From Giardia intestinalis (lineage: Eukaryota): a stretch of 64,000 bases of DNA. Below are positions 10,313 to 59,187 of this stretch, piece by piece (positions within the stretch are counted from its first letter, which is position 1; the number at the start of each line of letters is the position of its first letter). Below the pieces are notes generated by a model. It searched no databases. It was given only the letters and a program-made list of their open reading frames with translations, and was not told the origin of the DNA. The stretch is taken from NCBI GenBank assembly GCA_000002435.2, contig CM018791.1. One strand, 5' to 3'. The translations under genes were made by a program, and so were the position numbers.

Positions 10313-11218
10313 ATGTCCCTCACTGTATCCGACCTCACCACGGAGCTGAAGAAGATTATAGATAGCAAAAACGAGTCCGCTCTTGTCCAGTTGACTTCGC
10401 AGTATGCGTCGAAGCACCGAGATAAGGTTGTAATTAACTACAAGTCCATCTATGGGATGTACCCTGCCGATGCAATCAAGAAAGCTCTAAAGTCAGGGCC
10501 TGCTGAAACGCTTCTGATGTATGCGTGGACAGATGCACAGGAGGTGCGTGCACGCCTACTCAACCAGGCCCTCAGTGGCAAGAACAACAAGTCTGCACTG
10601 ATAGACGTCGTCCTCTTTTGCGGCCCAGAAGACTGGTACGAGATGGGAGCACACTACACGCGCATATTTCAGAAAGTGGCCAACGACACCCTGCTCAGTG
10701 ATATCGGCAGCTCTGAGCCGTGGTCGCAACTCATCAAGGGGTGGATCAAACACGACAGATACGAGCGCAAGGCTATTAGTGAGGATGCCGCGGCGCTCAT
10801 GGGCTACTTGGAATCTGGCAACCCCGATGGCCTGATCGATCTCCTGTGCAACACCACAGAGGGAGAGTGGAAAAAGATAAATAAGGTGTTCACAGAGAAG
10901 TACGGCGTCGAGGTGGAGACCCTTATTGCGTCCAACTACGTGAAGACAGACATGGAGGCCCTGCTTACCGCCCACTTCTACCTGCTACAGCCCGGCTATG
11001 CCGCTGCCTACCTATGCTCCCTCGCCAACTCTGGCAAAAAGGGCGATAGTGACCGGATGGTTCGCATCACCTCTCTTATGTTCGACAAGGCATTAAAGTG
11101 TAAGTTTGCGTATGAAAAGTACGGCAAGCTCGGCTCAGACTTTAAGCGCCTCTACGACGCCCGTCTCGGGCGAGCTCTTTGTGCACTTTGGCGTGTTGAC
11201 ACCGAAGGCGCAAACTAA
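10313..11218 (+). CDS. Alpha-giardin (annexin-like cytoskeletal protein).
   Basis: 301 aa with four annexin-like repeats. The C-terminal signature [21 protein letters not shown]...LWRV is shared with the alpha-giardin array at 55-59 kb, and the protein has strong overall similarity to the gene at 56227. Confidence 0.8.
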
Positions 11219-11269
11219 AGCGTGCATTTAACAGGTGTGAATTAATAATCGGCTTTTCACTGTCCGTCA

Positions 11270-12307
11270 ATGCCTGTTCTGACCCCCATAGGCGAGCTGG
11301 CAGAGAGTCTCTACAATGCGCTTAACCTCGTAGATTTTCAGGGAGCCGTAGCACTGGGATCAAGGTATCCGGCAGACCAAAGGGACAAGGTCCTTCCGCT
11401 GTTCATCACGAGGTATGGCGAGCTGCCCTCTGATATGATAGATAGGCTTTTTAAGCCACCGCAGAGAACAATCCTTGCTTATCTGTGGTCTCAGAAGCAC
11501 GAGGTGCGGGCGGCAATCCTTCTAAATGCAATCCGCACTTCGGATTATTCTACCATGATAGATCTGATTTTTCTTTCGTCGCACTCTGACTGGGAGTCTA
11601 TCCGCACACACTACACCAAAATGTGCGGTAGACAACTTGATGCCGATATCATCGGCAGCGTCAAGCCGAGTAAAAAGGAGGCTGCCCCAATATGGCCAGC
11701 TCTTGCCGAGGCCTGGCTACGTGGGACGCGTTCTGAGCGATACAATCCAGCAAACGAATCAGTACAGCTGGTGAATGCCATCAAACGGAAGGATTTCTCT
11801 GCCATAATATGGCTGATTGCCAATACGGTGTCCAGCGAGTGGGAAAAGATCGTTGCCATTACAGAGGAGGCCCTTGGGAGTACCCTTGAGGAGTTCTTTC
11901 TATGCAATCTTTCGTACGCAGATTGTGCGGCTTTCAGCATGGGTACAGGCGCTTTGATTAATCCCGGCCTTGGGGCAGCATTCGCCATATCCCGGGCCTG
12001 CTTTACGAATTACGAAGGAAAAGGGAAAGACACCCCCAAGGTGGAAAGGTCGGCCTCCAGACAGATGAAGGGATCAAAAAAGTTGAAAACTGGTACAATA
12101 AAGTTCGAGGAGACCCGCTCTTCCAAGAAGGGTGCAGAGTACAAGGGAGATGTGTCCCGACTAATCCGTGTATCGTCTCTCTTCTTCGACTCTTGTAATA
12201 AATGTAAGTTCTTCTATCGCAAGTACGGATCACTAGCAGCAGATCTGCGCTCTGGATTCGCGCCACCTTTATGCGAGGCCTTCATGCGGCTCTGGGATGT
12301 GGATTAG
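11270..12307 (+). CDS. Alpha-giardin-like annexin homologue with an internal lysine-rich insertion.
   Basis: The C-terminus (IRVSSLFFDSCNKCKFFYRKYGSLAADL...LWDVD) matches the alpha-giardin signature. A roughly 50-aa K/G-rich insertion (NYEGKGKDTPKVERSASRQMKGSKKLKTGTIKFEETRSSKKGAEYKG) lies before the last repeat. It sits in tandem with the gene at 10313. Confidence 0.65.
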   Translation: MPVLTPIGELAESLYNALNLVDFQGAVALGSRYPADQRDKVLPLFITRYGELPSDMIDRLFKPPQRTILAYLWSQKHEVRAAILLNAIRTSDYSTMIDLIFLSSHSDWESIRTHYTKMCGRQLDADIIGSVKPSKKEAAPIWPALAEAWLRGTRSERYNPANESVQLVNAIKRKDFSAIIWLIANTVSSEWEKIVAITEEALGSTLEEFFLCNLSYADCAAFSMGTGALINPGLGAAFAISRACFTNYEGKGKDTPKVERSASRQMKGSKKLKTGTIKFEETRSSKKGAEYKGDVSRLIRVSSLFFDSCNKCKFFYRKYGSLAADLRSGFAPPLCEAFMRLWDVD

Positions 12308-18535: not shown

Positions 18536-18856
18536 GAAATGCCCGATTTGTTAATATTTACTATTACGCAAAATATACAGGAACAAAGATGGTCCCCTTG
18601 AAGAGGCCAGTGAAGAAGATAGTTCCCTCCCTGCCCACAGAGTCTACGTGACGCTACGGGCTCTTATTGCTGAAGTACTTGCTGACTAATTAAACTAAGC
18701 TCTTTGATAGAAAATAGATCATCGCACTACATAGGAGAATTGCATGCACAATAGCCTTACCGGCAGATAGGTAAAAAGCGAATGAAAAATTGTATTGTAC
18801 TATGAGCCAAACTTTATCTTATAAAGATTGAGGAATCCCAGGTAATATATAACGGT

Positions 18857-21800
18857 TTGAATGCCAGCAAGATTCGCGACCGCAGAGCACACTGCAATCT
18901 GGCGACTGGTTTGGCCATGCCGCTTCTTTATCCGTTAGAAACTCGGCTGGGAGCGACAAAGAGCACGTCGGGAGAACCCGGTGGGAGGGGACAGGCGGGG
19001 CTTTCTGCGCCACGGGGGGAACCACCGCAGGAGGACGTGCAGGCACGCAAGCCAGGCCACAGTAGACACGCGGGCGCCCCTGTAGACCGGGCCGGCAGCA
19101 GGCGTCCGTAGAATCCGCGCCAGAGCCAGCTGCTCAAAAAACTGGGCAGCCCCTGGTCGTGTGCAAGCCTTGCAGAGCACTGCGGCCCCCGACACTCGGC
19201 GACCCCTCTCAGAGCGGAAGACCCCGCGGGCCGCAGGCAGCAGCTCGTCGTCGGCGATGCCCCGAACGAGGGGGACGGCCCCAGCCTGCCCGCCTCCGCA
19301 GAGCTCCGGGTATCTGTAGACAAACCGGGGCTGCGCAGGGTGCGGCTCTCCCTGGCGGCCGAGGGCAGGGGTCCCCGGCAATACCAAAAAACTCCGATCA
19401 ATACATCAGCCCCGGCGCCGCCGTGTGCAAAGCAGTCTGTTCTGTGTGGCGGCCCAAGCCAGCTCGTACTGCGGCGATGGCCCGGGTGAGGGCGCCCTGC
19501 TCGCCCGACGGACCGGGGCAGGCAGGCAACAAACACCCGCTAAAGCTTTTATGCAAGGCCTGTACATATTTAATTTCACATTATTCGTTGGTCTGTTTTT
19601 AGTTTTATCGCTGCTTCTATCGGATGGGCTCTGGGGCAATGACGGCGGAGACGCGCGCCTCCGTTCTGCTCGAGCTCGCGAAGCAGGTCGTCGCTGCCCG
19701 GCGGCTGGGAGAGACGGCCGAGAGCCTCGCGCGGCGGCCGCTGCTCCTCCACCGGCACGTGCTCCGGACGGCCATCGACTGGAAGAAGATCGCCCGCGCC
19801 CTGTCCGAGGACCGGAGCAGGATCTACCACTGGTACCGCGAGACGCACTCGCGGAGCATCCTCAACGTGAAGATGACCGGCGAGGACCGCAGGGCCATCA
19901 AGGCGATGATCATCGCCGGGGTCAGGGACCGGAGCGTCCTGGGCCCGGACTTCTACCGCAGGGTCCACGAGCGCTTCGGGGCGAAGTATCCGCGCCAGGA
20001 GCTGCGGATGACGTACAACAACGCGCTCCGCACCCAGGACGTCCGCGCCGCCCTGGAGGAGCACGGGGTGGTGCTGCCGCGCCGCACATACGGCCCGAGG
20101 GCGGCCAGGCAGGAGGAGGAGGCATCTCCTGTGGCGGCCACTCCCCCGCCCCCCTGCGTTTTTGGTTGCGCCGCGCCTCCGCTGGTGCCGCCCGTCGGGG
20201 GGCCGGTCTTTGTGGTCCCGGGCGCGGTCTCTGCGCTTCTGCCCCCGCACGCGCCGGGGTGCCTCGTCCTCGCCCTCCCACCCGGGGTCGTTCCTGGGCC
20301 CGGCGTCCTCCCGCTCCAGACGGGCCAGGGCCTCCTTGGGCCGCCCGTTGCCTTCGCGTGCGTGCCATGCTTCCCCCCTGCGGGCTACGGGGGCGTCCCT
20401 GGGTGCGCTGATGCGAGCCCCAGTAAGGGTTGAGGACTGGAGAACCCGGCTTGCTTGACGATTGTCGAAGAGTGGCCGGCAGGAACAGCCGATGGTTGGA
20501 TCCCTGATCAGTGACGAGACAGTTATATCTAGAGCGTGTAGCATGCTCAACCACGGCACAGCGCAGGGCCCACCAGACACAGGCTACGACGGTCTGGATG
20601 TCGCGCAACCCGCATTCTGCGCATTGCTGAAGAGACCACACACAGCAGACGAAGGCAGGGCTCTCCCATGTGCCCAGACGACTCGAACACCGCGGTCTGG
20701 GCCAACGATCTACCAGACAGGCCCGTCCGGTAACAGGCGACTGAATGCTCTCTGGGCCGTGAGCTAAAGCTGATGTGCAGCTGGCCGGCCACGACATTCA
20801 CCCTGGCTGGCCCTCTGTCTTCACGCGCCGACACGCCAAGGAGCTGTAGGGAAGTCGTGTGCTGTCTTGGCAGGTATATTATTACCTCCATGTATGCACC
20901 CTGGATGCGGCCACCATAGCACAGCTGCATCTCTGATCGTCCTGTACACGCCTCCTGGCACGAGTAGGTGCGCAGGAGGGGGTGCACTGCCCACCGCCGA
21001 GAAATGGATGAGCTCCCCTGCTCAGGAGCCGACGACCGCCAGCCATGCCCAACGAGGTCCCCTGCAAGGAGGCCTGCTGAGCCAGCTCTTCCAGCGAGCC
21101 GTGTATCTGGAAGAGCTCCGCGTTGAATGGCTCCTTGATTAAGGAAGCCGGAGTCCAGCGCGATGTGACGCCTGTCCGTCTAAGGCTGAGACTTCGGTCT
21201 GGTGCTTGCTGCTGAGCGAGCATTAAATGAGGCTGGCCAAAGAAGCGGCTCAGGGCTTTCATAGCTCTGTGTCTTCTTGTTCTGTTCGACTGAAACACCT
21301 GATCTCAGTGCTGACTGTTGGGTCTCCTCCTGTGGACGTGGTCCGGAAGTCTCACAGAGGACCTGTTTTTTTGTAATTTCTTCTAAGACGAAGGTAAGTC
21401 GTTCTATAGGATTAGGACTACATCTGTAGAAGCACAGCCCCGGTTAAAGCAGTAACATACAATTCGCAGATGCGTAGAATGCTTGCAGGAGAAAGCAGTA
21501 AGGAAAGATATCTCGATCATGACATAGACGTGAGACAGCACCACAGGCTGCCCAAGCAACCGGTCTGGATACGAGGTGCGGCATGATTACCCTTATCTAT
21601 CCTTTGCCAGGTGAGGGAATTCGACATAGAGCCTAGTCACCCTAACGGTCAGAACCAAAGGCAAAAGCTAGACCTGTGGTGTGTTGGCAAGTGATGGACA
21701 CAAGGGCATCCCTGGATGGACTGTTGCATGAGAGGGCGAAGGCCCATAGAGATGGGTTGCTCTCAGCACCTGCAGTGGGCAGCTTGCTCCGCGGCCAACA

Positions 21801-22770
21801 AGTTGTTGGGTCAGAAACAAGCACGGACGATGCCTGTCAGATGGGTCCGAGCCAGTCACCCGATGCCCCCTACGGGCCTCGTCCAACCGACACTCTTGAT
21901 TCTTGTCGAATAGCTCAGACAGACTGGGGAGAGGAAGGACTACCAGTCACCAGAGCTTGCTGCAGTGGGAGAGCCGGGCTTGGCTCGTCCCCGTCTTCAC
22001 ACAAGAGCGGGGAAGTGGGTTTACTTGCGGGACCCTTGGGCCGCGGCTGCAGGGGGGCTCAGTACTAGAGCGCTAGAAATAGCTGGCTGTCGAAGTAAAT
22101 CGTCGCTTTCCGGGGATGACATCTTCCTCGACCAGGGCAGCAGAAGAGACCCTCAATGCATCTGCCGGTGCTGGGGTGCGTCCTACCCGTCAGCGGGGCT
22201 TCATGGCTCCACTGGAAAGCCCAATCGTCCGCTTCTTGCTGTGCTCAGAGGACAGAGAACTAGGCAGGCGTAGTCCCATCCGCCCACCGGAGGGCTATGA
22301 GCGCCCCCGTCGTCCCATTGAGCAGCACCAGGCGCAGAAGAGGTCTGCCGGAAATGCGCCAGATGCAGTCAACGCTTTTCTGGGTGTAGTGTTAACAGAA
22401 TCACACGCTACGACGCGTCCCAGACAGGCTCCACCTGGCAGCGGCGCCCCAGAGGCGGGCCCCGAGGGACAAAACATTTCTGGCCCTGCCCCTGCTCCAA
22501 TGCGAGCGGCCCGCGGACAGAGCCGAGGACGGGGGCCAGTGCTCGGCCTCCTGCTGGTGCGGTGGCGCCGGGAGACCACCGGACCATCGACTCGGCAGCG
22601 GCAACCGGTGGAACGCCCTGGGCTGCTGCTGTGCCCATGCGCCTGGAGCGCGCCGCAGCAGCCCGGGATGGGTCCGCAGACAGGCGTGCCGCCCCAGCCG
22701 TCCCGGGGGCCGGCTCCTCGTGGCGGGCGCTCCTGCTCCCTTTGACTTTTCAAATGGAGAACGCAGTTAT
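18857..22770. repeat. Inverted-repeat arm A (about 3.9 kb); mirror image of 26330-30215.
   Basis: Every ORF in this arm recurs on the opposite strand in arm B with identical translation. Examples: 334-aa 19576..20580(-) equals 28505..29509(+); 328-aa 19425..20411(+) equals 28674..29660(-). One SNP seen (c at about 21673 versus t at about 27413). Outer edge degenerates over about 30 bp near 18857-18886; inner edge is sharp at about 22770. Confidence 0.9.
19624..20433 (+). CDS. Myb/SANT-like helix-turn-helix protein with a Pro/Gly/Ala-rich C-terminal tail (copy 1, in arm A).
   Basis: ATG preceded by a strongly A/T-rich initiator (tacatatttaatttcacattattcgttggtctgtttttagttttatc). The N-terminal 170 aa align with a paralog at 53268 (W..IA..L..R......HWY.E.H...MTgEDR.A....I.G..DRS.L.P.F.......YP.....MTYNN.LR...VR.AL). 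The W-x2-IA-x2-L-x2-R-x7-W spacing resembles a Myb repeat. Confidence 0.6.
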   Translation: MGSGAMTAETRASVLLELAKQVVAARRLGETAESLARRPLLLHRHVLRTAIDWKKIARALSEDRSRIYHWYRETHSRSILNVKMTGEDRRAIKAMIIAGVRDRSVLGPDFYRRVHERFGAKYPRQELRMTYNNALRTQDVRAALEEHGVVLPRRTYGPRAARQEEEASPVAATPPPPCVFGCAAPPLVPPVGGPVFVVPGAVSALLPPHAPGCLVLALPPGVVPGPGVLPLQTGQGLLGPPVAFACVPCFPPAGYGGVPGCADASPSKG

Positions 22771-23314
22771 GGATCCTAGTTCTGCTGCAGAAGGTGCCTT
22801 ATGAGACGCAGCACAGCCACACCAAGCGGTATCGGGGCTGAACACTCCTTGGGACGGGCTCCTGGCGCATCTGAGAGACGCTCGTTGCTGTGCACTGCCT
22901 CTCGGGCCTTGGATGCACGTTGTGCAGAGCTGCAGGAGTCGCCCTTGCAGTTGTCAGTGGGCCGTTGATGGAGCCATTGAAAGCTCTGGACCGCTACTGG
23001 GCAGTACTGTCCCAGTGCACGTGTGGCAGCTTTGGCTCGCACTGGATGGTCCGTACAGATTGCAACGGAGCCACGAGGTGCATTAGTATGACATACACAT
23101 TGAGACAGTTGCAGTTCTATTCGGTCCAATCCACCTCCTTCTGGCCCTGTGCCGAGATTGCAGATTGCAAGTAGTGTTCGCGATAGACCCGGTGAGTGTT
23201 GATTCCATCAGCGCCTGTGGTCAACGTGTGCCAGAAGGATCAATCAACTGCATCAATCGACGCGGATTGACTGATGTACCGCGAGTATGTTCCTACCAAT
23301 CTATCAATCGGGCA

Positions 23315-25534
23315 ATGTTTGGCAGTTTTGTTCTCGCGGGGGTACTCGTCCAGATTGCATGGGCAGGAAAAGCAACAGAGCGCGCGCAAGAAGCTCAATG
23401 CGCAGATAACACTAATTGCGCAGCAGAAGCATGCAACGTTCTGATCGGTGGTAAATTGTATTGCTCTCGATGTAACACAGGATTTGTTCCTATCAATGGA
23501 CAATGTGCAGACAAAGAAGGTGCAACAGATAAGTGCAAAGATGGCTCCGGAGGCGATACAGCTGATCAGACCTGTGGACAGTGCGCCGAGCAGACTTTCA
23601 TGTACAAGGGCGGCTGTTACGAAGCAGCCCAGCAGCCCGGACAGACCATGTGTCAGGCGGCAGATGCTGGAGTATGCACACAAGCCGCGCAAGGATACTT
23701 CGTGCCGCCGGGCGCAGACGCCTCTCACCAATCGGTTATACCATGTGGAGACGAAGAGGAAATAACGGTTAAAAACGATAAAAAGTACAAGGGCGTGCTG
23801 CACTGCACTCGGTGTAACGCTCCCACAGAAGCAGCAGATGCTAACGCCAAGGCCGCCACATGCACTGCGTGCCAGGCAGATAGGTATCTGAAGACAGCCA
23901 AGGACCAAGCCACCTCCTGCGTGACAGAGCAAGAGTGCACCGGCACCGAAGGGTTCTTCGCGAAAAATGGCGGCACCAAAACCTGTGAGGCGTGCGCTGA
24001 AACATGCAAGACCTGTAAGACCGAGGCTGCGAAGTGCACCTCTTGCAAGGACGACAAGCCGTACCTGAAGAAGGATAATGGCAGCGACACTGGCACGTGC
24101 GTCACCGAAGCTGAGTGCAAGACTGGAAACACCCACTACCCCGACGACACTGAGCCGAAGACGTGCAAGACGTGCGCCGAGGGGACCTCCGACGGGTGTG
24201 CGACGTGCGAGAAGGGCGCCGATGGAGCAGTCGCCTGCAAGACGTGCGGAAACCAGAAGAAGGTCCAGCCAAACAAGAAGGGGTGCGTTGAGAACTGCCC
24301 CTCGAACTCCAACGATAAGAAGACCCCTGGCACCTGTGAGTGCGTTGAGGGCTACGTTCCCGAGGAGGCCGGCACCGGGTGCACGAAGAAGCCCGACCCC
24401 CCTGCGGCGCCGTGCAACACCCCCGGCTGCAAGACGTGCAGTGAGCCGAAGACAAGCAAGGAGGTGTGCACAGAGTGCGAAGACCCCAAGGCCCTCACGC
24501 CCACGGGCCAGTGCATCTACGGTTGTGAGCACCTGGAAGGCTACTACGAGGGCACCAGCGAGGGGGGCAAGAAGGCCTGCAAGAAGTGCGAGGTCGAGAA
24601 CTGCCTCCTGTGCAACGAAAACGGACAGTGCGAGACCTGCAAGGACGGATACTACAAGAAAGAAACCGCCTGTGCCAAGTGCGATACCTCGTGCAAGACG
24701 TGCGCGAACGGGGAGCCCAACGGGTGCACGAGCTGCGAGGCTAAGAAGGCCCTCAGCTACGAAGGAGAGGGCAACACGGGGACGTGCAAATCAGAATGCA
24801 AACCGGGTACTAACAACTGCGAGAAGTGCGAGCTGACAGTCGATGGCACGGCCTACTGCTCCAAGTGCAAGGACGCCAACCAGTTCCCGCAGAACGGAGT
24901 CTGCTCGGCGGCGGCCGGAAAGGCTATTACGTGCACTACCAAAGGGACTGGTGTCTGTGACAAATGCGCCAACGGGCTTCTTCGGATGAACGGAGGCTGC
25001 TATGAGACGACCAAGTTCCCTGGAAAGAGCGTCTGTGAGGAAGCAGCATCGGCTGGGGATACCTGCCAAGTAGAGGCTCCAGGCTATCATCTTAATAACA
25101 ATGACCTTGTGACTTGCTCGGCCGGATGTAAGACGTGCACTAGTAACACCGTGTGTACTGAATGCATGGATGGGTATGCAAAGACTGATAATAAGTGCAC
25201 AAAGTGTGCCACTGGCTGTGCTACTTGTGCAGGATCCGCCTCAAATTGCGACACTTGCAGCACTGGGTACTACAAGTATAAGAACGCCTGTGTGTCTTGC
25301 ACGGAAAGCAACAGTGATAAGACTATCACCGGCGTCGCCAACTGCGCCAACTGCGCTCCTCCACTCAACAATAAAGGGTCTGTCCTCTGCTACCTCGTGC
25401 AGAGTGGCGAGAACACTAACAAAAGTGGTCTCAGCGCAGGCGCCATCGCGGGCATCGCTGTTGCTGTCATCATTGTTGTCGGCGGCCTCGTCGGTTTCCT
25501 TTGCTGGTGGTTTATGTGCAGAGGCAAGGCGTAG
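23315..25534 (+). CDS. vsp: Variant-specific surface protein (VSP).
   Basis: Signal peptide MFGSFVLAGVLVQIAWA. Dozens of CXXC motifs. A GGCY motif (MNGGCYE). C-terminal TM segment followed by the invariant cytoplasmic tail CRGKA and stop. The track ORF starts 150 nt upstream (23165), but the signal peptide begins at ATG 23315. Confidence 0.9.
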   Translation: MFGSFVLAGVLVQIAWAGKATERAQEAQCADNTNCAAEACNVLIGGKLYCSRCNTGFVPINGQCADKEGATDKCKDGSGGDTADQTCGQCAEQTFMYKGGCYEAAQQPGQTMCQAADAGVCTQAAQGYFVPPGADASHQSVIPCGDEEEITVKNDKKYKGVLHCTRCNAPTEAADANAKAATCTACQADRYLKTAKDQATSCVTEQECTGTEGFFAKNGGTKTCEACAETCKTCKTEAAKCTSCKDDKPYLKKDNGSDTGTCVTEAECKTGNTHYPDDTEPKTCKTCAEGTSDGCATCEKGADGAVACKTCGNQKKVQPNKKGCVENCPSNSNDKKTPGTCECVEGYVPEEAGTGCTKKPDPPAAPCNTPGCKTCSEPKTSKEVCTECEDPKALTPTGQCIYGCEHLEGYYEGTSEGGKKACKKCEVENCLLCNENGQCETCKDGYYKKETACAKCDTSCKTCANGEPNGCTSCEAKKALSYEGEGNTGTCKSECKPGTNNCEKCELTVDGTAYCSKCKDANQFPQNGVCSAAAGKAITCTTKGTGVCDKCANGLLRMNGGCYETTKFPGKSVCEEAASAGDTCQVEAPGYHLNNNDLVTCSAGCKTCTSNTVCTECMDGYAKTDNKCTKCATGCATCAGSASNCDTCSTGYYKYKNACVSCTESNSDKTITGVANCANCAPPLNNKGSVLCYLVQSGENTNKSGLSAGAIAGIAVAVIIVVGGLVGFLCWWFMCRGKA

Positions 25535-25542
25535 ACTTAGAT

Positions 25543-25549
25543 AGTAAAT
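25543..25549 (+). terminator. Giardia-type polyadenylation signal AGTAAAT (AGTRAAY) 9 nt after the VSP stop.
   Basis: The sequence gtag acttagat AGTAAAT lies immediately 3' of the CRGKA stop, matching the known Giardia poly(A) signal position. Confidence 0.6.
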
Positions 25550-26329
25550 GCGTCGATTCGCCTTCTTAAGGCGTGGAACTCTCGTTACGTCCACACTGCA
25601 AATGTGCTTGACGATTTCTAACATCTGGATTTTGTATAGCAGTCTGGAGTCGTGTGTGTGACTTTACTTTTATTCCACACTTCCAATAGTTTGCCACTGG
25701 ACTTCGCCTGCAAATGCAGCCTAGGAGTGCATGAATAAATAAACTTACATGTCTTCTTGGTAGAGCAAAGCAGACCCCTACTTGAGGACTTGGACCCGCT
25801 ACTCTATGCTTGTATCTGACGTAGTCGCACTTAGCCAAGGTGCACACCCTACTATCACTCGATAGCTCACCCTCTCGTTGTCTTAAAGGAGCAGCTCTTA
25901 GACTGCTGCCCAGTTGACTTTACCAAGTACTTGCTTATTTAAGCGAACTGTGAACGAACTTTCTGAATACCAGGTGAACCCTTATATCTAAAGACTACGA
26001 CACGTTCCTCATGTTCCAGTTCTACTGTAGTGACCTGTGAGGATGGTTGTATCCAATCTCAGTCCTCCAGCATATAGAGTATACACTAGTAACCATTTGT
26101 ACTTCATAACCTGTCTTTGTCTTCGAACGTGACTGAGCGACCGGATTATTCGCATGGGTTTAGCCCATATCTAAATAAGATCGAGAAGAGGCCACAAGAA
26201 TACTTTCTATAGCAAAGCTGGAGCTGCTAGCTACATATGCAACAGTTAGCCCCGCACCAGCAATCGATGCAACGGGGATGTGTGCCCACCCGAGCAGTAC
26301 ACAGCTGGCTACCCGTAATTATGCTCTCC

Positions 26330-29300
26330 ATTTGAAAAGTCAAAGGGAGCAGGAGCGCCCGCCACGAGGAGCCGGCCCCCGGGACGGCTGGGGCGGCACG
26401 CCTGTCTGCGGACCCATCCCGGGCTGCTGCGGCGCGCTCCAGGCGCATGGGCACAGCAGCAGCCCAGGGCGTTCCACCGGTTGCCGCTGCCGAGTCGATG
26501 GTCCGGTGGTCTCCCGGCGCCACCGCACCAGCAGGAGGCCGAGCACTGGCCCCCGTCCTCGGCTCTGTCCGCGGGCCGCTCGCATTGGAGCAGGGGCAGG
26601 GCCAGAAATGTTTTGTCCCTCGGGGCCCGCCTCTGGGGCGCCGCTGCCAGGTGGAGCCTGTCTGGGACGCGTCGTAGCGTGTGATTCTGTTAACACTACA
26701 CCCAGAAAAGCGTTGACTGCATCTGGCGCATTTCCGGCAGACCTCTTCTGCGCCTGGTGCTGCTCAATGGGACGACGGGGGCGCTCATAGCCCTCCGGTG
26801 GGCGGATGGGACTACGCCTGCCTAGTTCTCTGTCCTCTGAGCACAGCAAGAAGCGGACGATTGGGCTTTCCAGTGGAGCCATGAAGCCCCGCTGACGGGT
26901 AGGACGCACCCCAGCACCGGCAGATGCATTGAGGGTCTCTTCTGCTGCCCTGGTCGAGGAAGATGTCATCCCCGGAAAGCGACGATTTACTTCGACAGCC
27001 AGCTATTTCTAGCGCTCTAGTACTGAGCCCCCCTGCAGCCGCGGCCCAAGGGTCCCGCAAGTAAACCCACTTCCCCGCTCTTGTGTGAAGACGGGGACGA
27101 GCCAAGCCCGGCTCTCCCACTGCAGCAAGCTCTGGTGACTGGTAGTCCTTCCTCTCCCCAGTCTGTCTGAGCTATTCGACAAGAATCAAGAGTGTCGGTT
27201 GGACGAGGCCCGTAGGGGGCATCGGGTGACTGGCTCGGACCCATCTGACAGGCATCGTCCGTGCTTGTTTCTGACCCAACAACTTGTTGGCCGCGGAGCA
27301 AGCTGCCCACTGCAGGTGCTGAGAGCAACCCATCTCTATGGGCCTTCGCCCTCTCATGCAACAGTCCATCCAGGGATGCCCTTGTGTCCATCACTTGCCA
27401 ACACACCACAGATCTAGCTTTTGCCTTTGGTTCTGACCGTTAGGGTGACTAGGCTCTATGTCGAATTCCCTCACCTGGCAAAGGATAGATAAGGGTAATC
27501 ATGCCGCACCTCGTATCCAGACCGGTTGCTTGGGCAGCCTGTGGTGCTGTCTCACGTCTATGTCATGATCGAGATATCTTTCCTTACTGCTTTCTCCTGC
27601 AAGCATTCTACGCATCTGCGAATTGTATGTTACTGCTTTAACCGGGGCTGTGCTTCTACAGATGTAGTCCTAATCCTATAGAACGACTTACCTTCGTCTT
27701 AGAAGAAATTACAAAAAAACAGGTCCTCTGTGAGACTTCCGGACCACGTCCACAGGAGGAGACCCAACAGTCAGCACTGAGATCAGGTGTTTCAGTCGAA
27801 CAGAACAAGAAGACACAGAGCTATGAAAGCCCTGAGCCGCTTCTTTGGCCAGCCTCATTTAATGCTCGCTCAGCAGCAAGCACCAGACCGAAGTCTCAGC
27901 CTTAGACGGACAGGCGTCACATCGCGCTGGACTCCGGCTTCCTTAATCAAGGAGCCATTCAACGCGGAGCTCTTCCAGATACACGGCTCGCTGGAAGAGC
28001 TGGCTCAGCAGGCCTCCTTGCAGGGGACCTCGTTGGGCATGGCTGGCGGTCGTCGGCTCCTGAGCAGGGGAGCTCATCCATTTCTCGGCGGTGGGCAGTG
28101 CACCCCCTCCTGCGCACCTACTCGTGCCAGGAGGCGTGTACAGGACGATCAGAGATGCAGCTGTGCTATGGTGGCCGCATCCAGGGTGCATACATGGAGG
28201 TAATAATATACCTGCCAAGACAGCACACGACTTCCCTACAGCTCCTTGGCGTGTCGGCGCGTGAAGACAGAGGGCCAGCCAGGGTGAATGTCGTGGCCGG
28301 CCAGCTGCACATCAGCTTTAGCTCACGGCCCAGAGAGCATTCAGTCGCCTGTTACCGGACGGGCCTGTCTGGTAGATCGTTGGCCCAGACCGCGGTGTTC
28401 GAGTCGTCTGGGCACATGGGAGAGCCCTGCCTTCGTCTGCTGTGTGTGGTCTCTTCAGCAATGCGCAGAATGCGGGTTGCGCGACATCCAGACCGTCGTA
28501 GCCTGTGTCTGGTGGGCCCTGCGCTGTGCCGTGGTTGAGCATGCTACACGCTCTAGATATAACTGTCTCGTCACTGATCAGGGATCCAACCATCGGCTGT
28601 TCCTGCCGGCCACTCTTCGACAATCGTCAAGCAAGCCGGGTTCTCCAGTCCTCAACCCTTACTGGGGCTCGCATCAGCGCACCCAGGGACGCCCCCGTAG
28701 CCCGCAGGGGGGAAGCATGGCACGCACGCGAAGGCAACGGGCGGCCCAAGGAGGCCCTGGCCCGTCTGGAGCGGGAGGACGCCGGGCCCAGGAACGACCC
28801 CGGGTGGGAGGGCGAGGACGAGGCACCCCGGCGCGTGCGGGGGCAGAAGCGCAGAGACCGCGCCCGGGACCACAAAGACCGGCCCCCCGACGGGCGGCAC
28901 CAGCGGAGGCGCGGCGCAACCAAAAACGCAGGGGGGCGGGGGAGTGGCCGCCACAGGAGATGCCTCCTCCTCCTGCCTGGCCGCCCTCGGGCCGTATGTG
29001 CGGCGCGGCAGCACCACCCCGTGCTCCTCCAGGGCGGCGCGGACGTCCTGGGTGCGGAGCGCGTTGTTGTACGTCATCCGCAGCTCCTGGCGCGGATACT
29101 TCGCCCCGAAGCGCTCGTGGACCCTGCGGTAGAAGTCCGGGCCCAGGACGCTCCGGTCCCTGACCCCGGCGATGATCATCGCCTTGATGGCCCTGCGGTC
29201 CTCGCCGGTCATCTTCACGTTGAGGATGCTCCGCGAGTGCGTCTCGCGGTACCAGTGGTAGATCCTGCTCCGGTCCTCGGACAGGGCGCGGGCGATCTTC

Positions 29301-30215
29301 TTCCAGTCGATGGCCGTCCGGAGCACGTGCCGGTGGAGGAGCAGCGGCCGCCGCGCGAGGCTCTCGGCCGTCTCTCCCAGCCGCCGGGCAGCGACGACCT
29401 GCTTCGCGAGCTCGAGCAGAACGGAGGCGCGCGTCTCCGCCGTCATTGCCCCAGAGCCCATCCGATAGAAGCAGCGATAAAACTAAAAACAGACCAACGA
29501 ATAATGTGAAATTAAATATGTACAGGCCTTGCATAAAAGCTTTAGCGGGTGTTTGTTGCCTGCCTGCCCCGGTCCGTCGGGCGAGCAGGGCGCCCTCACC
29601 CGGGCCATCGCCGCAGTACGAGCTGGCTTGGGCCGCCACACAGAACAGACTGCTTTGCACACGGCGGCGCCGGGGCTGATGTATTGATCGGAGTTTTTTG
29701 GTATTGCCGGGGACCCCTGCCCTCGGCCGCCAGGGAGAGCCGCACCCTGCGCAGCCCCGGTTTGTCTACAGATACCCGGAGCTCTGCGGAGGCGGGCAGG
29801 CTGGGGCCGTCCCCCTCGTTCGGGGCATCGCCGACGACGAGCTGCTGCCTGCGGCCCGCGGGGTCTTCCGCTCTGAGAGGGGTCGCCGAGTGTCGGGGGC
29901 CGCAGTGCTCTGCAAGGCTTGCACACGACCAGGGGCTGCCCAGTTTTTTGAGCAGCTGGCTCTGGCGCGGATTCTACGGACGCCTGCTGCCGGCCCGGTC
30001 TACAGGGGCGCCCGCGTGTCTACTGTGGCCTGGCTTGCGTGCCTGCACGTCCTCCTGCGGTGGTTCCCCCCGTGGCGCAGAAAGCCCCGCCTGTCCCCTC
30101 CCACCGGGTTCTCCCGACGTGCTCTTTGTCGCTCCCAGCCGAGTTTCTAACGGATAAAGAAGCGGCATGGCCAAACCAGTCGCCAGATTGCAGTGTGCTC
30201 TGCAGCCGGGGATCT
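26330..30215. repeat. Inverted-repeat arm B (about 3.9 kb); mirror image of 18857-22770.
   Basis: See arm A. Identical ORF translations on the opposite strand throughout. The inner edge diverges right after caaatggaga (26330 versus 22770). Confidence 0.9.
28652..29461 (-). CDS. Myb/SANT-like helix-turn-helix protein with Pro-rich tail (copy 2, in arm B).
   Basis: 269-aa translation identical to 19624..20433. ATG (cat on the + strand) at 29459-29461 with the same A/T-rich upstream context. Confidence 0.6.
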   Translation of the reverse strand: MGSGAMTAETRASVLLELAKQVVAARRLGETAESLARRPLLLHRHVLRTAIDWKKIARALSEDRSRIYHWYRETHSRSILNVKMTGEDRRAIKAMIIAGVRDRSVLGPDFYRRVHERFGAKYPRQELRMTYNNALRTQDVRAALEEHGVVLPRRTYGPRAARQEEEASPVAATPPPPCVFGCAAPPLVPPVGGPVFVVPGAVSALLPPHAPGCLVLALPPGVVPGPGVLPLQTGQGLLGPPVAFACVPCFPPAGYGGVPGCADASPSKG

Positions 30216-30913
30216 TGCTGGCATCTCACGCGACCGGGCTCTGGGTGTGCCTGCTCAACAGTAGCTACCTCATCCACAGAGTGCTGATGCAGATATTATG
30301 CGCTACGTATCAGTGACCACAGGGGCACCGATAGACAGGGTCTCAGCCTCAGTGCACAACGAAGGTTATCAAGCATAGCGAGGCTTACATACTGAGCATG
30401 GGTCCGTGCCCCGCGTGGTCTTCTTAAGAACTAGTGCATGAGTGTTTGTGAGACGATGCTATCCGTATGAGGCGGGCTATCCGTCGTACGCGAAGTGCAG
30501 TACGGCAGAAGTGGGTGATGCAGGAACCAGAGGGGGTGCTTCAGCACATCAGTCGTCGGCCCCTCTGCCTTCTGTCACGCCTGATGGACTCTCCTCTACT
30601 ATCGCAACTCAGTCGTGGTTGTCTGAGGAGAGGACTAGGTATTCAGTAGACAATGGAATCGCGTGGCCTGGACGCGATTTCGTGATGGCCAACACGGGTT
30701 ATCAGGCTGGCTGTGGTCTGGATATGTGGTACAGCTTCCTTCACTCAAGCAGGGGTTAACACCTGCACTAATACAGATCTACAATAAGACATACACCATG
30801 CCCAGTACAGTTGAAAGATAAAACAGAAAGATATTATATTAAACGATAGTTATATTTGCCGTCAATTGTTATTAATAGAGCTAACACCCCTGGTCAAAAA
30901 AACGTTCGCTGTG

Positions 30914-53267: not shown

Positions 53268-54242
53268 ATGGATCTGCTCAATACGTATAGCCCGAAGCAT
53301 CTCTCTATCTTGTCGGCCGTCGCCGCGCACGTAAAAGAGGTTCTGTTTCTTCCGTCTACAGTGGAAGAGCTGCTTGAAAACCTAGAGTACCTGCACAAGT
53401 GTGTCAGCAAGGTTCGGGTCAAGTGGCAGGCAATATCAAAGGACATCGGTATCACAGGACGGGAAGCATATAGATGGTATAACGAGGTGCACGTCCGTAA
53501 GCTGTTTCGCGGTATCATGACCCCCGAGGACCGCCAAGCCCTCCAAGGGATTATTCTACAAGGAATTTATGACAGAAGCATCCTTCTGCCTAACTTTCGG
53601 AAGGTTGCTCGGTCTAAGCTGTGTGCTGATTACCCTCTCCAGATCTTCACAATGACATACAATAACCTTTTGCGGTCGAAGACTGTGCGAGAGGCTCTGA
53701 TCTACGAGAGGGTGCTGCTCCCGATGCGCTCGGCTCCCTCCAGGCCGTCCAGGCAGCCCGCCCCCGAGGTGTCTGGGCCCGCTCCGGTTAGCCAGGTCGC
53801 CATGGAACCCCCTCCGTATTTTCCACGATTTCCCTCTGTGGCTCCCCCGCCCCAGATGGTTCCACCTTACATGGCTCCTCCACCCCACATGCGCCATCCA
53901 TTTTTCGGTATAGAGTCCCACCAGGCCCAAAGCTGGCCAAATCCTTTTGCTTGTAGCGTTCCACTGGATAGAGTTTATCCCTACTCCTATCCCTATCCAT
54001 ACTCGGGTGAGTACGCGCACAATTTCGCTCCCGATGCGCCTCTCCCTGGTATGAGAGACGCCCCCATGGGCAACTCGGGATTGTACCTGAGTACTGCCCC
54101 GGACATGAATTCGTCTTGTTCTGGTCACTCGTTTTTCGACGAGATAGCCAATAAAAGTGATAGCAATCAGGTTCTATTGGCTTCTAGCGTGGCCCAAGGA
54201 GACTATTCTTCTGGTTCGAGCTACGATCATATGCATGTATAG
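53268..54242 (+). CDS. Diverged paralog of the inverted-repeat-borne Myb/SANT-like protein, with a Pro-rich tail.
   Basis: Aligns with the 269-aa arm protein over about 170 aa (VKWQAISKDIGITGREAYRWYNEVH...MTPEDRQALQGIILQGIYDRSILLPNF...YPLQIFTMTYNNLLRSKTVREALIYERVLLP). The C-terminus is P-rich (PPYFPRFPSVAPPPQMVPPYMAPPPHM). The track ORF starts further upstream at 53097; ATG 53268 has gtaagctgtaaaaaa upstream. ATG 53235 is an alternative. Confidence 0.55.
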   Translation: MDLLNTYSPKHLSILSAVAAHVKEVLFLPSTVEELLENLEYLHKCVSKVRVKWQAISKDIGITGREAYRWYNEVHVRKLFRGIMTPEDRQALQGIILQGIYDRSILLPNFRKVARSKLCADYPLQIFTMTYNNLLRSKTVREALIYERVLLPMRSAPSRPSRQPAPEVSGPAPVSQVAMEPPPYFPRFPSVAPPPQMVPPYMAPPPHMRHPFFGIESHQAQSWPNPFACSVPLDRVYPYSYPYPYSGEYAHNFAPDAPLPGMRDAPMGNSGLYLSTAPDMNSSCSGHSFFDEIANKSDSNQVLLASSVAQGDYSSGSSYDHMHV

Positions 54243-54278: not shown

Positions 54279-55229
54279 ATGGACTCGCTTCTGGCGGCAA
54301 TAGCAAGCCTGCGCGAGAACCCGGGAGCGAGGGGGGTGCAGACCGATAACGTTATCCTACAGGACCGGGCTCAGGGGCTGACCACGGTTGTCCTGCGGCG
54401 CAGAGAGGCCTTAGAGTCGAAGGTTAAGAGTCTCAAGTCTCAGACACCAGATGCACTGGGATCGCCAGACCCAGCTGACCAGCTTGTGATGGCGCCACAC
54501 AATGGCCTTATACTCATCAGGAACAGATTCAACATTATGGATGTACATCTACTCCTCTGCGCTGCAGAATTCGTCCATCAACTACAGCCTCTGGTGCTGA
54601 GTGACATGGAAGTAGTGCAGCCTCTTCTAGGGCGCGGAATTTTGGCTGCGTACAATGCCGGCAAGCTATCAGGGGCCAGTCAGCCCCGCAAACACATCCA
54701 ATTGATAGGGCTTCCTTTCCTCTCCAAGAATGAGTGGAATGTCTTTCCACTGAGGGCCCTTGTAGAACGTGAGCTTTCAGACCCAGATAGATGTGATGAA
54801 CCAGCTCAACTTTCCGTGTTTGCTGGGCGGAACCACGGGGTGATTCGCTTCAAAAGACCTCCATCACCAGCGAAGCTATATGCGCATTACACCAAGCTCC
54901 TAGAATATTGCAATGCTGGTGATCTTATCACCGTCAACAAGCACGAACTCGGCCTAGGCTTCGACAGGCCCTCGGCCAGTGCGCCTGAAGATGCTAGTGA
55001 TGAGTGCATGGTACAGGTTTATCGCCGCGATTTTTCATTGCTCATTGCTGAGGAGTTCATCTTCATAGGTGTGCGCGAAACTGAAAAGCCCTTTGAAATA
55101 GGGTGTAACAGCATAAGCTACACAGGAAACCTGTTTGTTAGCAGTGATGATCAGGAGCGGACAGTCGCTGAGGTGGGGCCGTTTGCTGTGCTGGCTGCGG
55201 GTCTGGAAGAACTTCCGCCTAAAAAATAA
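54279..55229 (+). CDS. Hypothetical protein (316 aa).
   Basis: Clean ORF with a real ATG. Its TAA stop overlaps the ATG of the next alpha-giardin by one base (taATG). Confidence 0.45.
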   Translation: MDSLLAAIASLRENPGARGVQTDNVILQDRAQGLTTVVLRRREALESKVKSLKSQTPDALGSPDPADQLVMAPHNGLILIRNRFNIMDVHLLLCAAEFVHQLQPLVLSDMEVVQPLLGRGILAAYNAGKLSGASQPRKHIQLIGLPFLSKNEWNVFPLRALVERELSDPDRCDEPAQLSVFAGRNHGVIRFKRPPSPAKLYAHYTKLLEYCNAGDLITVNKHELGLGFDRPSASAPEDASDECMVQVYRRDFSLLIAEEFIFIGVRETEKPFEIGCNSISYTGNLFVSSDDQERTVAEVGPFAVLAAGLEELPPKK

Positions 55230-56119
55230 TGTCTGCCACGGTATCCACAGTGTCCGCGGATCTTCACAAAGCAATAGATGCTGGAGACGAGGACAAGATA
55301 ACCAAGATTACTGCGTCGTATGGATCTGAGCAGCGCGATAAGATCATTCCAGCCTATCACGCAAACTATGGCATCCCTCCCTCGGAAGCCATCCGCAAAG
55401 CGTTTAAGACAGGCTTCTATGAAACAATGATTGTGCACGCGTGGACTTCACGCTTTGAGCTCCGGGCGAAATTGATTCACGAGTCTATTAAAGGGAAGAT
55501 AGATGTGATAACACTACTGGATCTGGTTATAGCTTGCATGCCTGACGACTGGTACGGCACGAAGGTCTGTTACACAAAGCTCTATGGACGCGAACTTGTT
55601 AGAGAAATAGACGAAGTGATAGGGGTGGGTACTCCTTGGCAGAGTCTTGTTTCTGGCTGGGTCAAGCATGATAGAAAGTATCGCAAGTCAATAAAGAGTG
55701 ATGCGGAGGCGTTTCGAATGGCGCTAGACAGTGACAACTACGAAGTCCTCGGAAGTATGCTTGCGACAAGTGTCCCAGATGAATGGATGCGGATTGCCGC
55801 TGCATACGAAGAGACCACTGGGATGCCTATTGACCAGGCGATTGCATCCCGGTACGTGAAGGTGGACCAGACGGCCTTAATTCTAGCACACCACTGGCTT
55901 TGCGACCCGGGCCAGGCGGCTGCGTATATCTGCTCTCAGTGTTGCGCTGAGCGCAAAGGCAACTACGCACGGATTTGTCGCTTCACCTCCATGATGTACG
56001 ACCATTGCCTGAAGTGCAAGTACGCCTACAGGGCGTATGGGTCCCTCGCAATGGATATTCGGAAATGCTTCGAGCCTAAGCTAGCAAAGCATCTGCTAGT
56101 CTTTTGGCGCGTGGAGTAG
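55229..56119 (+). CDS. Alpha-giardin (annexin-like), first gene of the tandem array.
   Basis: 296 aa. Annexin-like repeats. C-terminal signature ICRFTSMMYDHCLKCKYAYRAYGSLAMDI...VFWRVE. ATG in the aaaaaataATG context. Confidence 0.8.
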   Translation: MSATVSTVSADLHKAIDAGDEDKITKITASYGSEQRDKIIPAYHANYGIPPSEAIRKAFKTGFYETMIVHAWTSRFELRAKLIHESIKGKIDVITLLDLVIACMPDDWYGTKVCYTKLYGRELVREIDEVIGVGTPWQSLVSGWVKHDRKYRKSIKSDAEAFRMALDSDNYEVLGSMLATSVPDEWMRIAAAYEETTGMPIDQAIASRYVKVDQTALILAHHWLCDPGQAAAYICSQCCAERKGNYARICRFTSMMYDHCLKCKYAYRAYGSLAMDIRKCFEPKLAKHLLVFWRVE

Positions 56120-56226
56120 TCTAGAGTTTGCGCATCTCATGAGTAAAGGCATGGTCTACTTGCAGTTTGAAACACGGTCATAATACTTTGGATAATTTGG
56201 CAGGCATCCAAAAAATAAAACCGCAA

Positions 56227-57120
56227 ATGGTCACCACGGTCCAAGATCTTGCAGAGCAGCTGAGGCAGGCTGTCGAAAGTTCCAATGAGCAGATGATAGC
56301 AGGACTGGCTAGCGCATACAGCGGTAAAGAACGAGAGAAGGTTCTGAGGGCGTATCTGAGCGCAACAGGTACCACTGCTGCCGACGCTATTCGTAAGGCC
56401 CTCAAGAACGGCCCCACCGAGAACTTGCTCGCCTATCTTTGGGATAAGCCCGGAGATGTGCGTGCCAAACTTATCCGCAACGCGCTTTCGGGGAAGAACG
56501 ACGAAGCTGCCCTTATTGACCTTGTTATCCACTGCAGTTCTGAGGATTGGTACAATACATGCACGGAGTATACAACAGATTACAAAAGGGTTCTCAACGA
56601 CGACCTTCTTTCAGACATAGGGACAAAGGAGCAGTGGACAAAGGTTTTCAAGCACTGGATCCTCCACAAGAGGTCTGACCGCTTCGACATCGATGGAGAT
56701 GAGAAGCGCCTGGTCACAGCCATCGGCAAGAAGGACTACGACACCATTGCAGAGATGCTAGGAACCACATCGGTCAGCGAGTACGCAAACATAGTCAGGA
56801 GAGCTGAGGTAACCTTGGGCAAAACCATAGACCAGGCCCTCTCTGCGGTCTGGTCTAAGCAAGACTTGGCAGTGCTTCTAGCCGCGCACTACGAGCTCCT
56901 CCACCCGGCGCGTCTAGCCTTCCACTTGCTTAAGCAGGCGCTCGACGGCAAAAAGCCCGATGAGGCGCGCATCATACGCATCACGGCCCTTACTTTCGAC
57001 ACCTGCCTTGCGGTGAAGTATGCAGCATCCGAGGCTGGCTACGACATTGGTTCTGCATTCGCTAAGGCCCTAGATAAGCGTCTCGCTCCCCTGATTAAAA
57101 TCCTCTGGCGTGTTATGTAA
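56227..57120 (+). CDS. Alpha-giardin, second gene of the array.
   Basis: 297 aa from the first ATG (the track start at 56167 is a TTG codon). C-terminal signature IRITALTFDTCLAVKYAASEAGYDI...LWRVM. Upstream ccaaaaaataaaaccgcaa ATG. Confidence 0.8.
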   Translation: MVTTVQDLAEQLRQAVESSNEQMIAGLASAYSGKEREKVLRAYLSATGTTAADAIRKALKNGPTENLLAYLWDKPGDVRAKLIRNALSGKNDEAALIDLVIHCSSEDWYNTCTEYTTDYKRVLNDDLLSDIGTKEQWTKVFKHWILHKRSDRFDIDGDEKRLVTAIGKKDYDTIAEMLGTTSVSEYANIVRRAEVTLGKTIDQALSAVWSKQDLAVLLAAHYELLHPARLAFHLLKQALDGKKPDEARIIRITALTFDTCLAVKYAASEAGYDIGSAFAKALDKRLAPLIKILWRVM

Positions 57121-57318
57121 AGGCGGCTATTACGCTTTCGAGTAAACGATCTCCAGTTGTGTGAGCCAAAGGAGAAACAGTGGCCGGCTCCCTCTTTTTG
57201 TTTTCTGGCCCAGGTTCTCTAGGAGCCCATCTACGGTTTACCTGGGCTCGTATGAAGCCCTGTAAACCTTCGAACCCTTCGCATCAGTTGGTAGAGGTCT
57301 CAGGGGCAGGAAAAAATA

Positions 57319-58227
57319 ATGACGTCCACTGTTGCTCAGATATGCTCGGATCTCAAGGGGGCTATCGACAAAAAAGACGAGCTTCGAATTGCCTTCATTG
57401 CCTCTGAATATTCGTCGCCGAGTCGTCTTAAAATCGCGCAGAGCTATGAAGCAACCTACAAAACCCCGATCACTGAAGCCATCAAAAAGTCCCTGAAAGG
57501 AGGAACTGCCGAGGATTTACTGGTGAATATGTGGGTCAGTAGACATGAGCATCGCGCAGAGCTGATAAATAAAGCCCTAGGCGGTTCCAGCGACGAAGAG
57601 GCGATTCGCGAACTGGTGTTTCTCTGCAATCCTGAAGATTGGCACGAGACCGCGTCTGTTTATAACCAAAAGTATCAGAAGATCATGCAGGACGCCGTCA
57701 CAAAGGCGATTGGAAGCAAAAGTCATTGGGCAAAGCTTGTGGCAGGTTGGATGGAACACAAACGTGAAGATAGGGGGTCGGTTGAAAACGATGTCAAGTA
57801 TTTGAAGGAGCTCATAGACGCACCCGTGACGGACGGAAATGCGTTAGCGCAATTCTTTGCCAGCACAACCCCTGATGAGTACACTCAGATAGCAGACAAG
57901 TTTTGCGAAGAATATAATTTAAGCATTGATCAGGCTCTTGTGAGGCCGCTAAAGGAGAACGAAGACGATCTGGAGGCATATGCTGCTGCCCACTTTGCGC
58001 TCCACGGGCTTCCCGTCTTGGCGGCCCAACTCATCAACAAAGCATGCAGACCCAAGAACGGAAACGAGCGAAGTATCTGCAGAATAACAACCCTCATGGT
58101 TGATCAGTGCTTGGCGGCAAAGTATGCGTATAAACTCTATGGAGACATGGGGGCAGACCTGTCTCGCTGCTTTGACGAGCGAATGGCCCCTATTTTGCGC
58201 ACGCTATGGCGCGTCACAGATGCATAG
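57319..58227 (+). CDS. Alpha-giardin, third gene of the array.
   Basis: 302 aa. Signature CRITTLMVDQCLAAKYAYKLYGDMGADL...LWRVTDA. ATG in the ggaaaaaataATG context. Confidence 0.8.
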   Translation: MTSTVAQICSDLKGAIDKKDELRIAFIASEYSSPSRLKIAQSYEATYKTPITEAIKKSLKGGTAEDLLVNMWVSRHEHRAELINKALGGSSDEEAIRELVFLCNPEDWHETASVYNQKYQKIMQDAVTKAIGSKSHWAKLVAGWMEHKREDRGSVENDVKYLKELIDAPVTDGNALAQFFASTTPDEYTQIADKFCEEYNLSIDQALVRPLKENEDDLEAYAAAHFALHGLPVLAAQLINKACRPKNGNERSICRITTLMVDQCLAAKYAYKLYGDMGADLSRCFDERMAPILRTLWRVTDA

Positions 58228-58296
58228 GATAAGCGAACTCATGATGGAAATTCAAATTACCTTAAAATATATTTTCTGAGCGCTTACATTTAGAAA

Positions 58297-59187
58297 ATGC
58301 CGAAGCTATCCCAGATCGTCGCTGACATGAAGCAGGCCATCGATGCCAAGGACGAGGCCCAGATCGCGTTCATAGCGTCGGAATACTCTGCAGATGCGCG
58401 TCAGAGGATTGCGCAGGGGTACAGGGACCAATACGGCAAGGAGCTCCCCGACGACATCAAGAAGGCGCTCAAGGGCGGCTCCGAGGAGAGCCTCCTGATG
58501 GATCTCTTCAGCGATCGTCACGAGGTCCGCGCCCAGCACATCCGCGACGCGCTTTCCGGCAAGAACGACCACATGGCCTTCTTCGACACAGTCATTCTGT
58601 GCACCCCCGAAGACTGGCACGAGACCGTCGCCGCCTACACGAGGATGTTCAAGAAGCCCCTCGTCGAGGACTTCATGAAGGATGTCGGCCGCAAGGAGAA
58701 TTGGTGTCTTTTCATGGAGAAGTGGATGGCTCACGAGCGCACTAGCCGTGAAGGCAGCCCTGACGAGGAAGCAGAGAAACTGAACAAGGCGTTCAGTGAG
58801 AGCGACCACGACTACATTTCCAGCTTCATGGCTGGGGTGCCTCCCGAAGAATACAAGTCCATCAACACCAGCTTCAAGAGCCTTACAGGAAAGGGCATCG
58901 ACCAGGCCTTCGCCACCATCTATACGGGGACTGACTACTACTCCCTGTACTGCGCCCACTTTGCTCTTCTTGGCATGCACAAGCTTGCCGCCTACCTGGT
59001 CAACTGCGCCTGCAACGATAAGGGCGACGAGAAGCGCATGAGGAGGATCACGGGCATGATGGTCGACAAGTGCTTGGCTGCAAAGTATGCCTACAAGACC
59101 TACGGGAGTATGAAAGCCGACGTCGAAAGGTGCTTTGATAAGCGCATGGCTCCGATCCTCTGTACCCTCTGGCGCCTAAGGGAGTGA
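58297..59187 (+). CDS. Alpha-1-giardin-like, fourth gene of the array.
   Basis: 296 aa. The N-terminus (QIAFIASEYS...ELPDDIKKALKGGSEESLLMDLFSDRHEVRAQHIRDALSG) and C-terminus (RRITGMMVDKCLAAKYAYKTYG) match what I remember of alpha-1/alpha-2 giardin. The alpha-1 assignment rests on memory, not on a search. Confidence 0.8.
   Translation: MPKLSQIVADMKQAIDAKDEAQIAFIASEYSADARQRIAQGYRDQYGKELPDDIKKALKGGSEESLLMDLFSDRHEVRAQHIRDALSGKNDHMAFFDTVILCTPEDWHETVAAYTRMFKKPLVEDFMKDVGRKENWCLFMEKWMAHERTSREGSPDEEAEKLNKAFSESDHDYISSFMAGVPPEEYKSINTSFKSLTGKGIDQAFATIYTGTDYYSLYCAHFALLGMHKLAAYLVNCACNDKGDEKRMRRITGMMVDKCLAAKYAYKTYGSMKADVERCFDKRMAPILCTLWRLRE

Follow-up and report, generated by a model that had tools for sequence, protein, structure and literature searches.

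The DNA analyzed here (hereafter, the window) is a 64,000-nt stretch of a 1.97-Mb chromosome of Giardia intestinalis, source strain WB. A single large repeat is present in the window, namely an inverted pair of arms at 18861-22772 and 26313-30224, which are 3,912 nt each, 100% complementary and 3,540 nt apart. The left arm has a GC content of 0.63 (versus 0.51 for the window), and the right arm is its mirror image. The unique spacer between them contains one VSP gene on the plus strand (23318-25534; Pfam PF03302, E 5e-153), running from a Met at 23318 to a stop at 25534 and encoding a protein whose C-terminus is CRGKA, directly followed by the stop; the upstream region of this gene also falls inside the unique spacer. 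Each arm carries a gene for a protein of 269 aa. Copy 1 (19624-20433, plus strand) exactly matches the WB record GL50803_0060974 / 00d60974, copy 2 (28652-29461, minus strand) is identical to it, and both point towards the spacer VSP at a distance of 2.3-3 kb. The original prediction, made from the letters of this DNA, that two identical copies mirror each other around one VSP gene was therefore confirmed by identical ORFs in fully complementary arms. A diverged paralogue of 324 aa, GL50803_0014552 (exact record match), lies on the plus strand at 53268-54242, with its N-terminal domain at 53268-53744. Clusters of alpha-giardin (annexin E1-like) genes are found one on each side of the region (10313-12307 and 55229-59187), the second of which adjoins the 14552 paralogue.

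In copy 1, a conserved helical N-terminal domain (residues 1-159; 19624-20100, plus strand) is followed by a Pro/Gly/Ala/Val-rich linker and tail (20101-20430, plus strand) with a short conserved motif near its end, VAFACVPCFPP (20347-20379, plus strand). Directly 5' of the ATG is an AT-rich island (19534-19623, plus strand), and no other lies in this part of the arm: GC over positions -90 to -1 is 0.38, compared with 0.68 in the upstream part of the arm. Judged by composition and position, it is a candidate for a short Giardia-type promoter/initiator. Six ORFs longer than 200 aa overlap at the DNA of the 269-aa gene (the arm is GC-rich). GC3 is far above GC2 only in the 269-aa frame (0.89 versus 0.55), which marks the coding frame among the open ones, and in the N-domain (19624-20100 and 28985-29461) the two values are 0.95 and 0.48. 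For the gene, dN/dS was 0.36 in comparison with the P15 copy, 0.26-0.36 in comparison with paralogues and 0.58 relative to a 74%-identical copy from an ENA sample. When WB was compared with another assemblage-A assembly, the unique flanks were 98-99.8% identical and the arm 85-96%, with 98.8% in the bin of the N-domain; among the WB copies, only 1-3 of 160 domain residues and 5-8 of 109 tail residues differed. Judged from these sequence features, both arms carry a genuine gene in this frame. A possible second gene downstream in the arm was rejected, as tblastx similarity was observed in all frames, stop codons included. A partly conserved non-coding stretch detected by blastn downstream of the 269-aa gene (20903-22090) is 68-75% identical to, and colinear with, DNA downstream of a 292-aa paralogue (L001 12068-13353). 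An Rfam search of the arms, including this stretch, gave no match, and it is either a non-coding element that has been conserved or what is left of an old block duplication.

The diverged third copy at 53.3 kb was also confirmed: BLASTP of the 269-aa protein against 53268-54239 showed 36% identity over 192 aa (E 8e-30), every motif block listed in the original prediction was present in this alignment, and Pro-rich tails were found in all three window copies. A family HMM searched against the six frames of the window identified exactly these three copies (E 1e-45, 1e-45 and 2.5e-39; 130-151 bits) and nothing else below E 5. We defined the family by an N-domain of about 150 aa containing W..IA, YHWY.ET..R, (M)T.ED and (T/A)(Y/F)NN..R, all of which occur in the window copies, and named it by GL50803_60974 / 14552 / 38275, GMRT_12412, SS50377_22962 and others. 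HMMER over 1.84 billion representatives revealed 84 proteins at E < 1e-3, 43 of which had E < 1e-10. All named members came from diplomonads (G. intestinalis, G. muris, Spironucleus salmonicida, Trepomonas sp. PC1 and Hexamita inflata), all were labelled 'hypothetical' and none had a Pfam domain. No relatives were found in a metagenome scan for the family, and a literature search by gene ID returned no papers on its members. The family is thus an uncharacterised one, found so far only in diplomonads.

A distance tree contained four old Giardia lineages, represented by 14552, by 38275 (639 aa), by the GLP15_3061 type (320 aa) and by a fourth group comprising two branches, the 292-aa type and the amplified 269-aa type. 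The 90%-identity cluster of the latter includes at least seven WB genes on four chromosomes (60974, d60974, 61066, 103981, 137682, 114778 and 112150). With a diplomonad-wide distribution and at least five paralogue lineages in Giardia, the family is older and far larger than the small one originally assumed. At least one of the Giardia lineages is transcribed: for 38275, FPKM was about 52 in WB and ranged from 53 to 145 across three other isolates. The amplified member 137682 was close to the lowest values in one encystation RNA-seq table, a result that is subject to multi-mapping.

The AlphaFold2 model of residues 1-159 (pLDDT 87) is all-helical, with nine helices (8-26, 32-36, 39-46, 53-60, 64-83, 86-102, 110-118, 124-135 and 138-146). 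Two repeats could be distinguished. Repeat 1 (residues 36-84; 19729-19875, plus strand; mirror copy 29210-29356, minus strand) is modelled as a Myb/SANT-like three-helix bundle with a helix-turn-helix (HTH) formed by its helices 2 and 3 and includes W53, IA56-57 and W70. Repeat 2 (residues 85-150; 19876-20073, plus strand; mirror copy 29012-29209, minus strand) is a four-helix unit with an invariant MTYNN. A global Foldseek search of PDB with the domain model gave no match, so the nine-helix arrangement as a whole is without a solved counterpart. Modelled alone (pLDDT 93), repeat 2 matched ENT/EMSY (6.0), Rap1 (5.4), TGIF1 (5.2) and Reb1 (5.1). Such matches to helical bundles are unspecific, which leaves repeat 1 (residues ~36-84) as the source of the Myb-specific signal.

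Profile support for Myb/SANT or another HTH family, which the original prediction had proposed to look for, was not obtained from Pfam: scans of the three window proteins and 61 family members yielded sub-threshold matches only. The best Myb matches were to Myb_DNA-bind_6 (16.7 bits; cut-off 22.9) and Myb_DNA-bind_8 (E 0.017-0.038; cut-off 27), and the recurrent weak ones were to HTH_23 in 14 of the 61 members (best E 6.7e-4, under the 24.6-bit cut-off), to Myb_DNA-bind_8 in 7 of 61 and to Myb_DNA-bind_6. Two family profiles searched against PDB sequences also gave nothing significant (best, Oskar LOTUS at E 0.04 and WER at E 0.21), and WER, an R2R3 Myb, ranked second among the sub-threshold matches in the second of these searches and aligned in register. 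We then used hhalign with a Myb R1R2R3 profile built from c-Myb relatives, the c-Myb query having been verified against 1H88. The whole domain reached a probability of 14% (P 0.002), and repeat 1 against Myb R1 reached 81% (P 1.2e-5; score 25.5 over 24-25 columns), exceeding all 40 of 40 column shuffles (maximum 11.2). Repeat 2 against Myb was not significant, and alignments to the single c-Myb sequence were too weak to use.

Myb repeats are recognized by three aromatic residues, usually Trp, about 18-19 residues apart. Repeat 1 contains only two conserved aromatic residues, W53 and W70, and none at the first position; repeat 2 has M84, F110 and Y131 at the corresponding positions. W53 and W70 are 17 residues apart, a spacing that equals the short-turn pattern of the HTH_23 consensus, versus 19 counted between the matching Trp residues of c-Myb R2. 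The residues of the proposed W-x2-IA-x2-L-x2-R-x7-W signature are present, with two small corrections: the Arg lies one residue later, and the second Trp follows the first by 17 residues. The proposal of tandem Myb/SANT repeats was half supported: a Myb/SANT-like (homeodomain-like) HTH in repeat 1 is supported by the modelled HTH and by the alignment to Myb R1, whereas repeat 2 showed no significant similarity. An HTH reading of repeat 2 is plausible, possibly as a degenerate unit of the Myb or homeodomain-like type. Assignment of the domain to the Myb sequence families is not established.

The strongly basic N-domain (pI 11.1) is followed by a further basic stretch (PRRTYGPR...) and by a Pro-rich region whose length varies. 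A 196/191-aa allele from other isolates (L015 891-1481; L016 2141-2716) has about 70 linker residues deleted in frame and keeps the C-terminal motif (SFACVPCFPPAGYGG). An alignment of the 269- and 292-aa proteins with their closest relatives shows this motif as hydrophobic-x-Y/C-I/V-P-hydrophobic x3. Coverage of the contig with the deletion allele was about 2.5x that of the syntenic contig in the same sample. Transcription factors usually combine a DNA-binding domain with a flexible linker and a short motif for interaction. The 269-aa protein appears to have a comparable organization, with a basic N-domain of about 150 aa, a variable Pro-rich linker taken as disordered and a short conserved C-terminal motif. 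Within the N-domain, an N-terminal helix precedes the Myb/SANT-like three-helix HTH and the second, more divergent helical repeat. DNA would most likely be bound through the third helix of repeat 1, with additional contacts probably provided by repeat 2 and the basic stretch, and the C-terminal motif would recruit a partner. The product is therefore likely to be a DNA-binding factor, acting presumably as a sequence-specific or chromatin-associated nuclear protein.

The N-domain might instead be a helical protein-protein or RNA/chromatin-interaction domain without sequence-specific DNA binding, such as a SANT-like histone-tail binder or a Cdc5-like or ENT/EMSY-like module. Histone-binding SANT domains are typically acidic, and the pI of 11.1 argues against such a role. 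In addition, on manual comparison, R/K/N/Y residues are conserved in the putative recognition helices (YHWYRETH.R and R.TYNN..R), much as in Myb. We consider this reading rather unlikely.

Structure at the locus differed between isolates. In an assemblage-A assembly (ENA ERZ28528424, NODE_591; L006 13070-14075), the corresponding left flank and arm lead into the VSP 3' end in reverse, indicating that the spacer (22773-26312) is flipped relative to WB. This could be a real arm-to-arm recombination or the assembler's choice; the two arms seem to differ from each other in a second contig of the same sample, which would favour a real inversion. Another contig from the other isolate (L016 838-1364) shares 530 bp of the unique right flank (window 30225-30753) and then diverges completely. 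With regard to base composition, GC3 was 0.89-0.95 in the amplified 269-aa subfamily versus 0.28-0.58 in single-copy relatives. GC3 values of at least 0.9 together with 100% identity of the arms suggest ongoing and frequent gene conversion; conversion among the amplified copies is probable and possibly GC-biased.

Alternatively, the gene could be a leftover from a mobile element or a DNA-binding module domesticated from one, and the arm a repeat unit spread through the genome; the two-HTH domain would then derive from the N-terminus of a paired-like (Tc1/mariner/IS630-type) transposase or from a Harbinger-type Myb-like accessory protein. The copy number of the gene, the breaking of assemblies at it and the outer edge of the left arm (18855-18861), which coincides with the start of homology in the P15 copy at a different locus, would agree with such an origin. 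However, terminal inverted repeats were looked for at the arm ends and none were found, and the arm has no transposase, integrase or reverse-transcriptase ORF, only GC-driven ORFs (one of 209 aa had no Pfam match). With the HTH_23 profile also below its cut-off, membership of the HTH_23 or paired-like transposase group did not hold. Moreover, the older paralogues are stable host genes, present as syntenic single copies and conserved across diplomonads. A mobile-element origin is thus improbable.

The question remained why the gene flanks a VSP. The 14552 paralogue is surrounded by housekeeping genes, including an Ap4A phosphorylase-like gene, and by alpha-giardins; the 292-aa paralogue sits between a TOG-domain gene and an ankyrin gene; and other Giardia lineages carry the homologues of 52-57% identity as single copies, in a conserved neighbourhood whose assembly poses no problem. 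In isolate DHA2, the 292-aa paralogue is followed about 6 kb downstream by an RVT_1 reverse-transcriptase gene (L001 16554-18026). No CRGKA-ending ORF was detected within about 3-10 kb on each side of the 14552, 292-aa and 52-57%-identical loci; the original prediction had asked whether other family members sit next to VSPs, and within these limits none did at these loci. The suggestion that the protein acts locally on the VSP locus found no support there, either. An inverted duplication with a 3.5-kb spacer is a structure known for Giardia VSP pairs, which points to the gene being a passenger. On balance, we think it probable that the 269-aa gene is a real member of a diplomonad family that likely encodes a DNA-binding protein, and is a passenger of the duplication rather than a local VSP regulator. 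Its position beside the VSP would then reflect genome dynamics and not function, the amplified subfamily lying in GC-rich, fast-evolving and recombination-prone DNA.

A local regulator would bind its own arms or the VSP promoter, or convergent read-through, sense from the left copy and antisense from the right copy, would feed VSP silencing. Two identical copies that flank one VSP and both face it, together with a basic HTH-like domain, are in line with this proposal, as is a weak lead from WB gene numbers, those of other copies being close to those of VSP pairs on the same chromosomes. On the other hand, the paralogue loci examined have no VSP in the surrounding sequence, the VSP upstream region is in the unique spacer with the genes 2.3-3 kb away, the multi-copy member 137682 is near the expression floor, and no binding site or shared motif was identified. 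We regard such regulation as very unlikely. It is even harder to believe that the amplified subfamily forms part of a VSP-associated recombination or expression module, in which arms with a DNA-binding-protein gene bracket a VSP cassette that is flipped by arm-to-arm recombination or transcribed convergently; if true, a lineage-specific HTH protein would be linked to antigenic variation. Finally, a spurious ORF opened by GC-rich DNA, as the six overlapping ORFs and the low expression of 137682 might suggest, was ruled out by the dN/dS values below 1, the N-domain kept while the surrounding DNA diverges and the GC3/GC2 pattern seen in this frame only, as well as by diplomonad-wide homologues (E down to 1e-77) and a deletion allele that stays in frame.

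Giardia has few recognized transcription factors, and a large share of its proteome carries the label 'hypothetical'. The family, with a predicted Myb-like HTH and at least five Giardia paralogue lineages, adds testable candidate DNA-binding or chromatin factors and is of moderate interest for gene regulation in this organism. The locus itself is a clean example of how inverted duplication and probable gene conversion reshape VSP-adjacent DNA, as reflected by the GC3 of 0.95, the 100% identical arms, the isolate-dependent structure and the flipped spacer. On present evidence, it has no bearing on the mechanism of antigenic variation. Preferring the passenger reading, we see here a lineage-restricted variant of a very common DNA-binding fold in a recombination-prone duplication, which is not surprising in kind.

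Among known systems, the closest are Myb/SANT proteins (c-Myb R1-R3, WER, Cdc5/CEF1, SNAPc4 and TRF1; PF00249 / PF13921), along with paired-like / Tc3-type bipartite HTH and HTH_23 (homeodomain-like) domains. The present family differs from Myb/SANT in that it has no Pfam-threshold match, is restricted to diplomonads and contains an additional N-terminal helix (residues 8-26). Its repeat 1 lacks the first Trp and has a turn between helices 2 and 3 that is two residues shorter (W-W 17 versus 19), whereas repeat 2, with a first helix of 17 residues and a fourth helix in addition, was not recognizable as Myb by sequence or fold search. Within Giardia, Myb2, Pax1 (32686), Pax2 (16640), a GARP-like protein and MBF1 are small nuclear HTH proteins that bind to AT-rich initiators, and the Pax2 paired domain is at the C-terminus (PMC3280250). 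The family would resemble these proteins in its inferred role, although the genes and their layout are different; identity with Pax1/Pax2 was rejected, as these are different ORFs with a C-terminal domain. As for the locus, perfect inverted duplications with 2-4 kb spacers have been documented in Giardia in the form of 14 identical VSP pairs (Adam 2010, PMC2996952), and 6.9% of the WB genome is duplicated, with VSP regions being gene-poor and variable (Xu 2020, PMC7000408). The arrangement at 18861-30224 is absent from the table of VSP pairs in the latter paper on the WB assembly. It shares with the identical inverted VSP pairs the perfect or near-perfect arms 2-4 kb apart (here 3,540 nt), the abrupt divergence points and the tendency to break assemblies. 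However, a non-VSP gene occupies the arms at this locus, with the VSP in the spacer, which is the converse of the published pairs.
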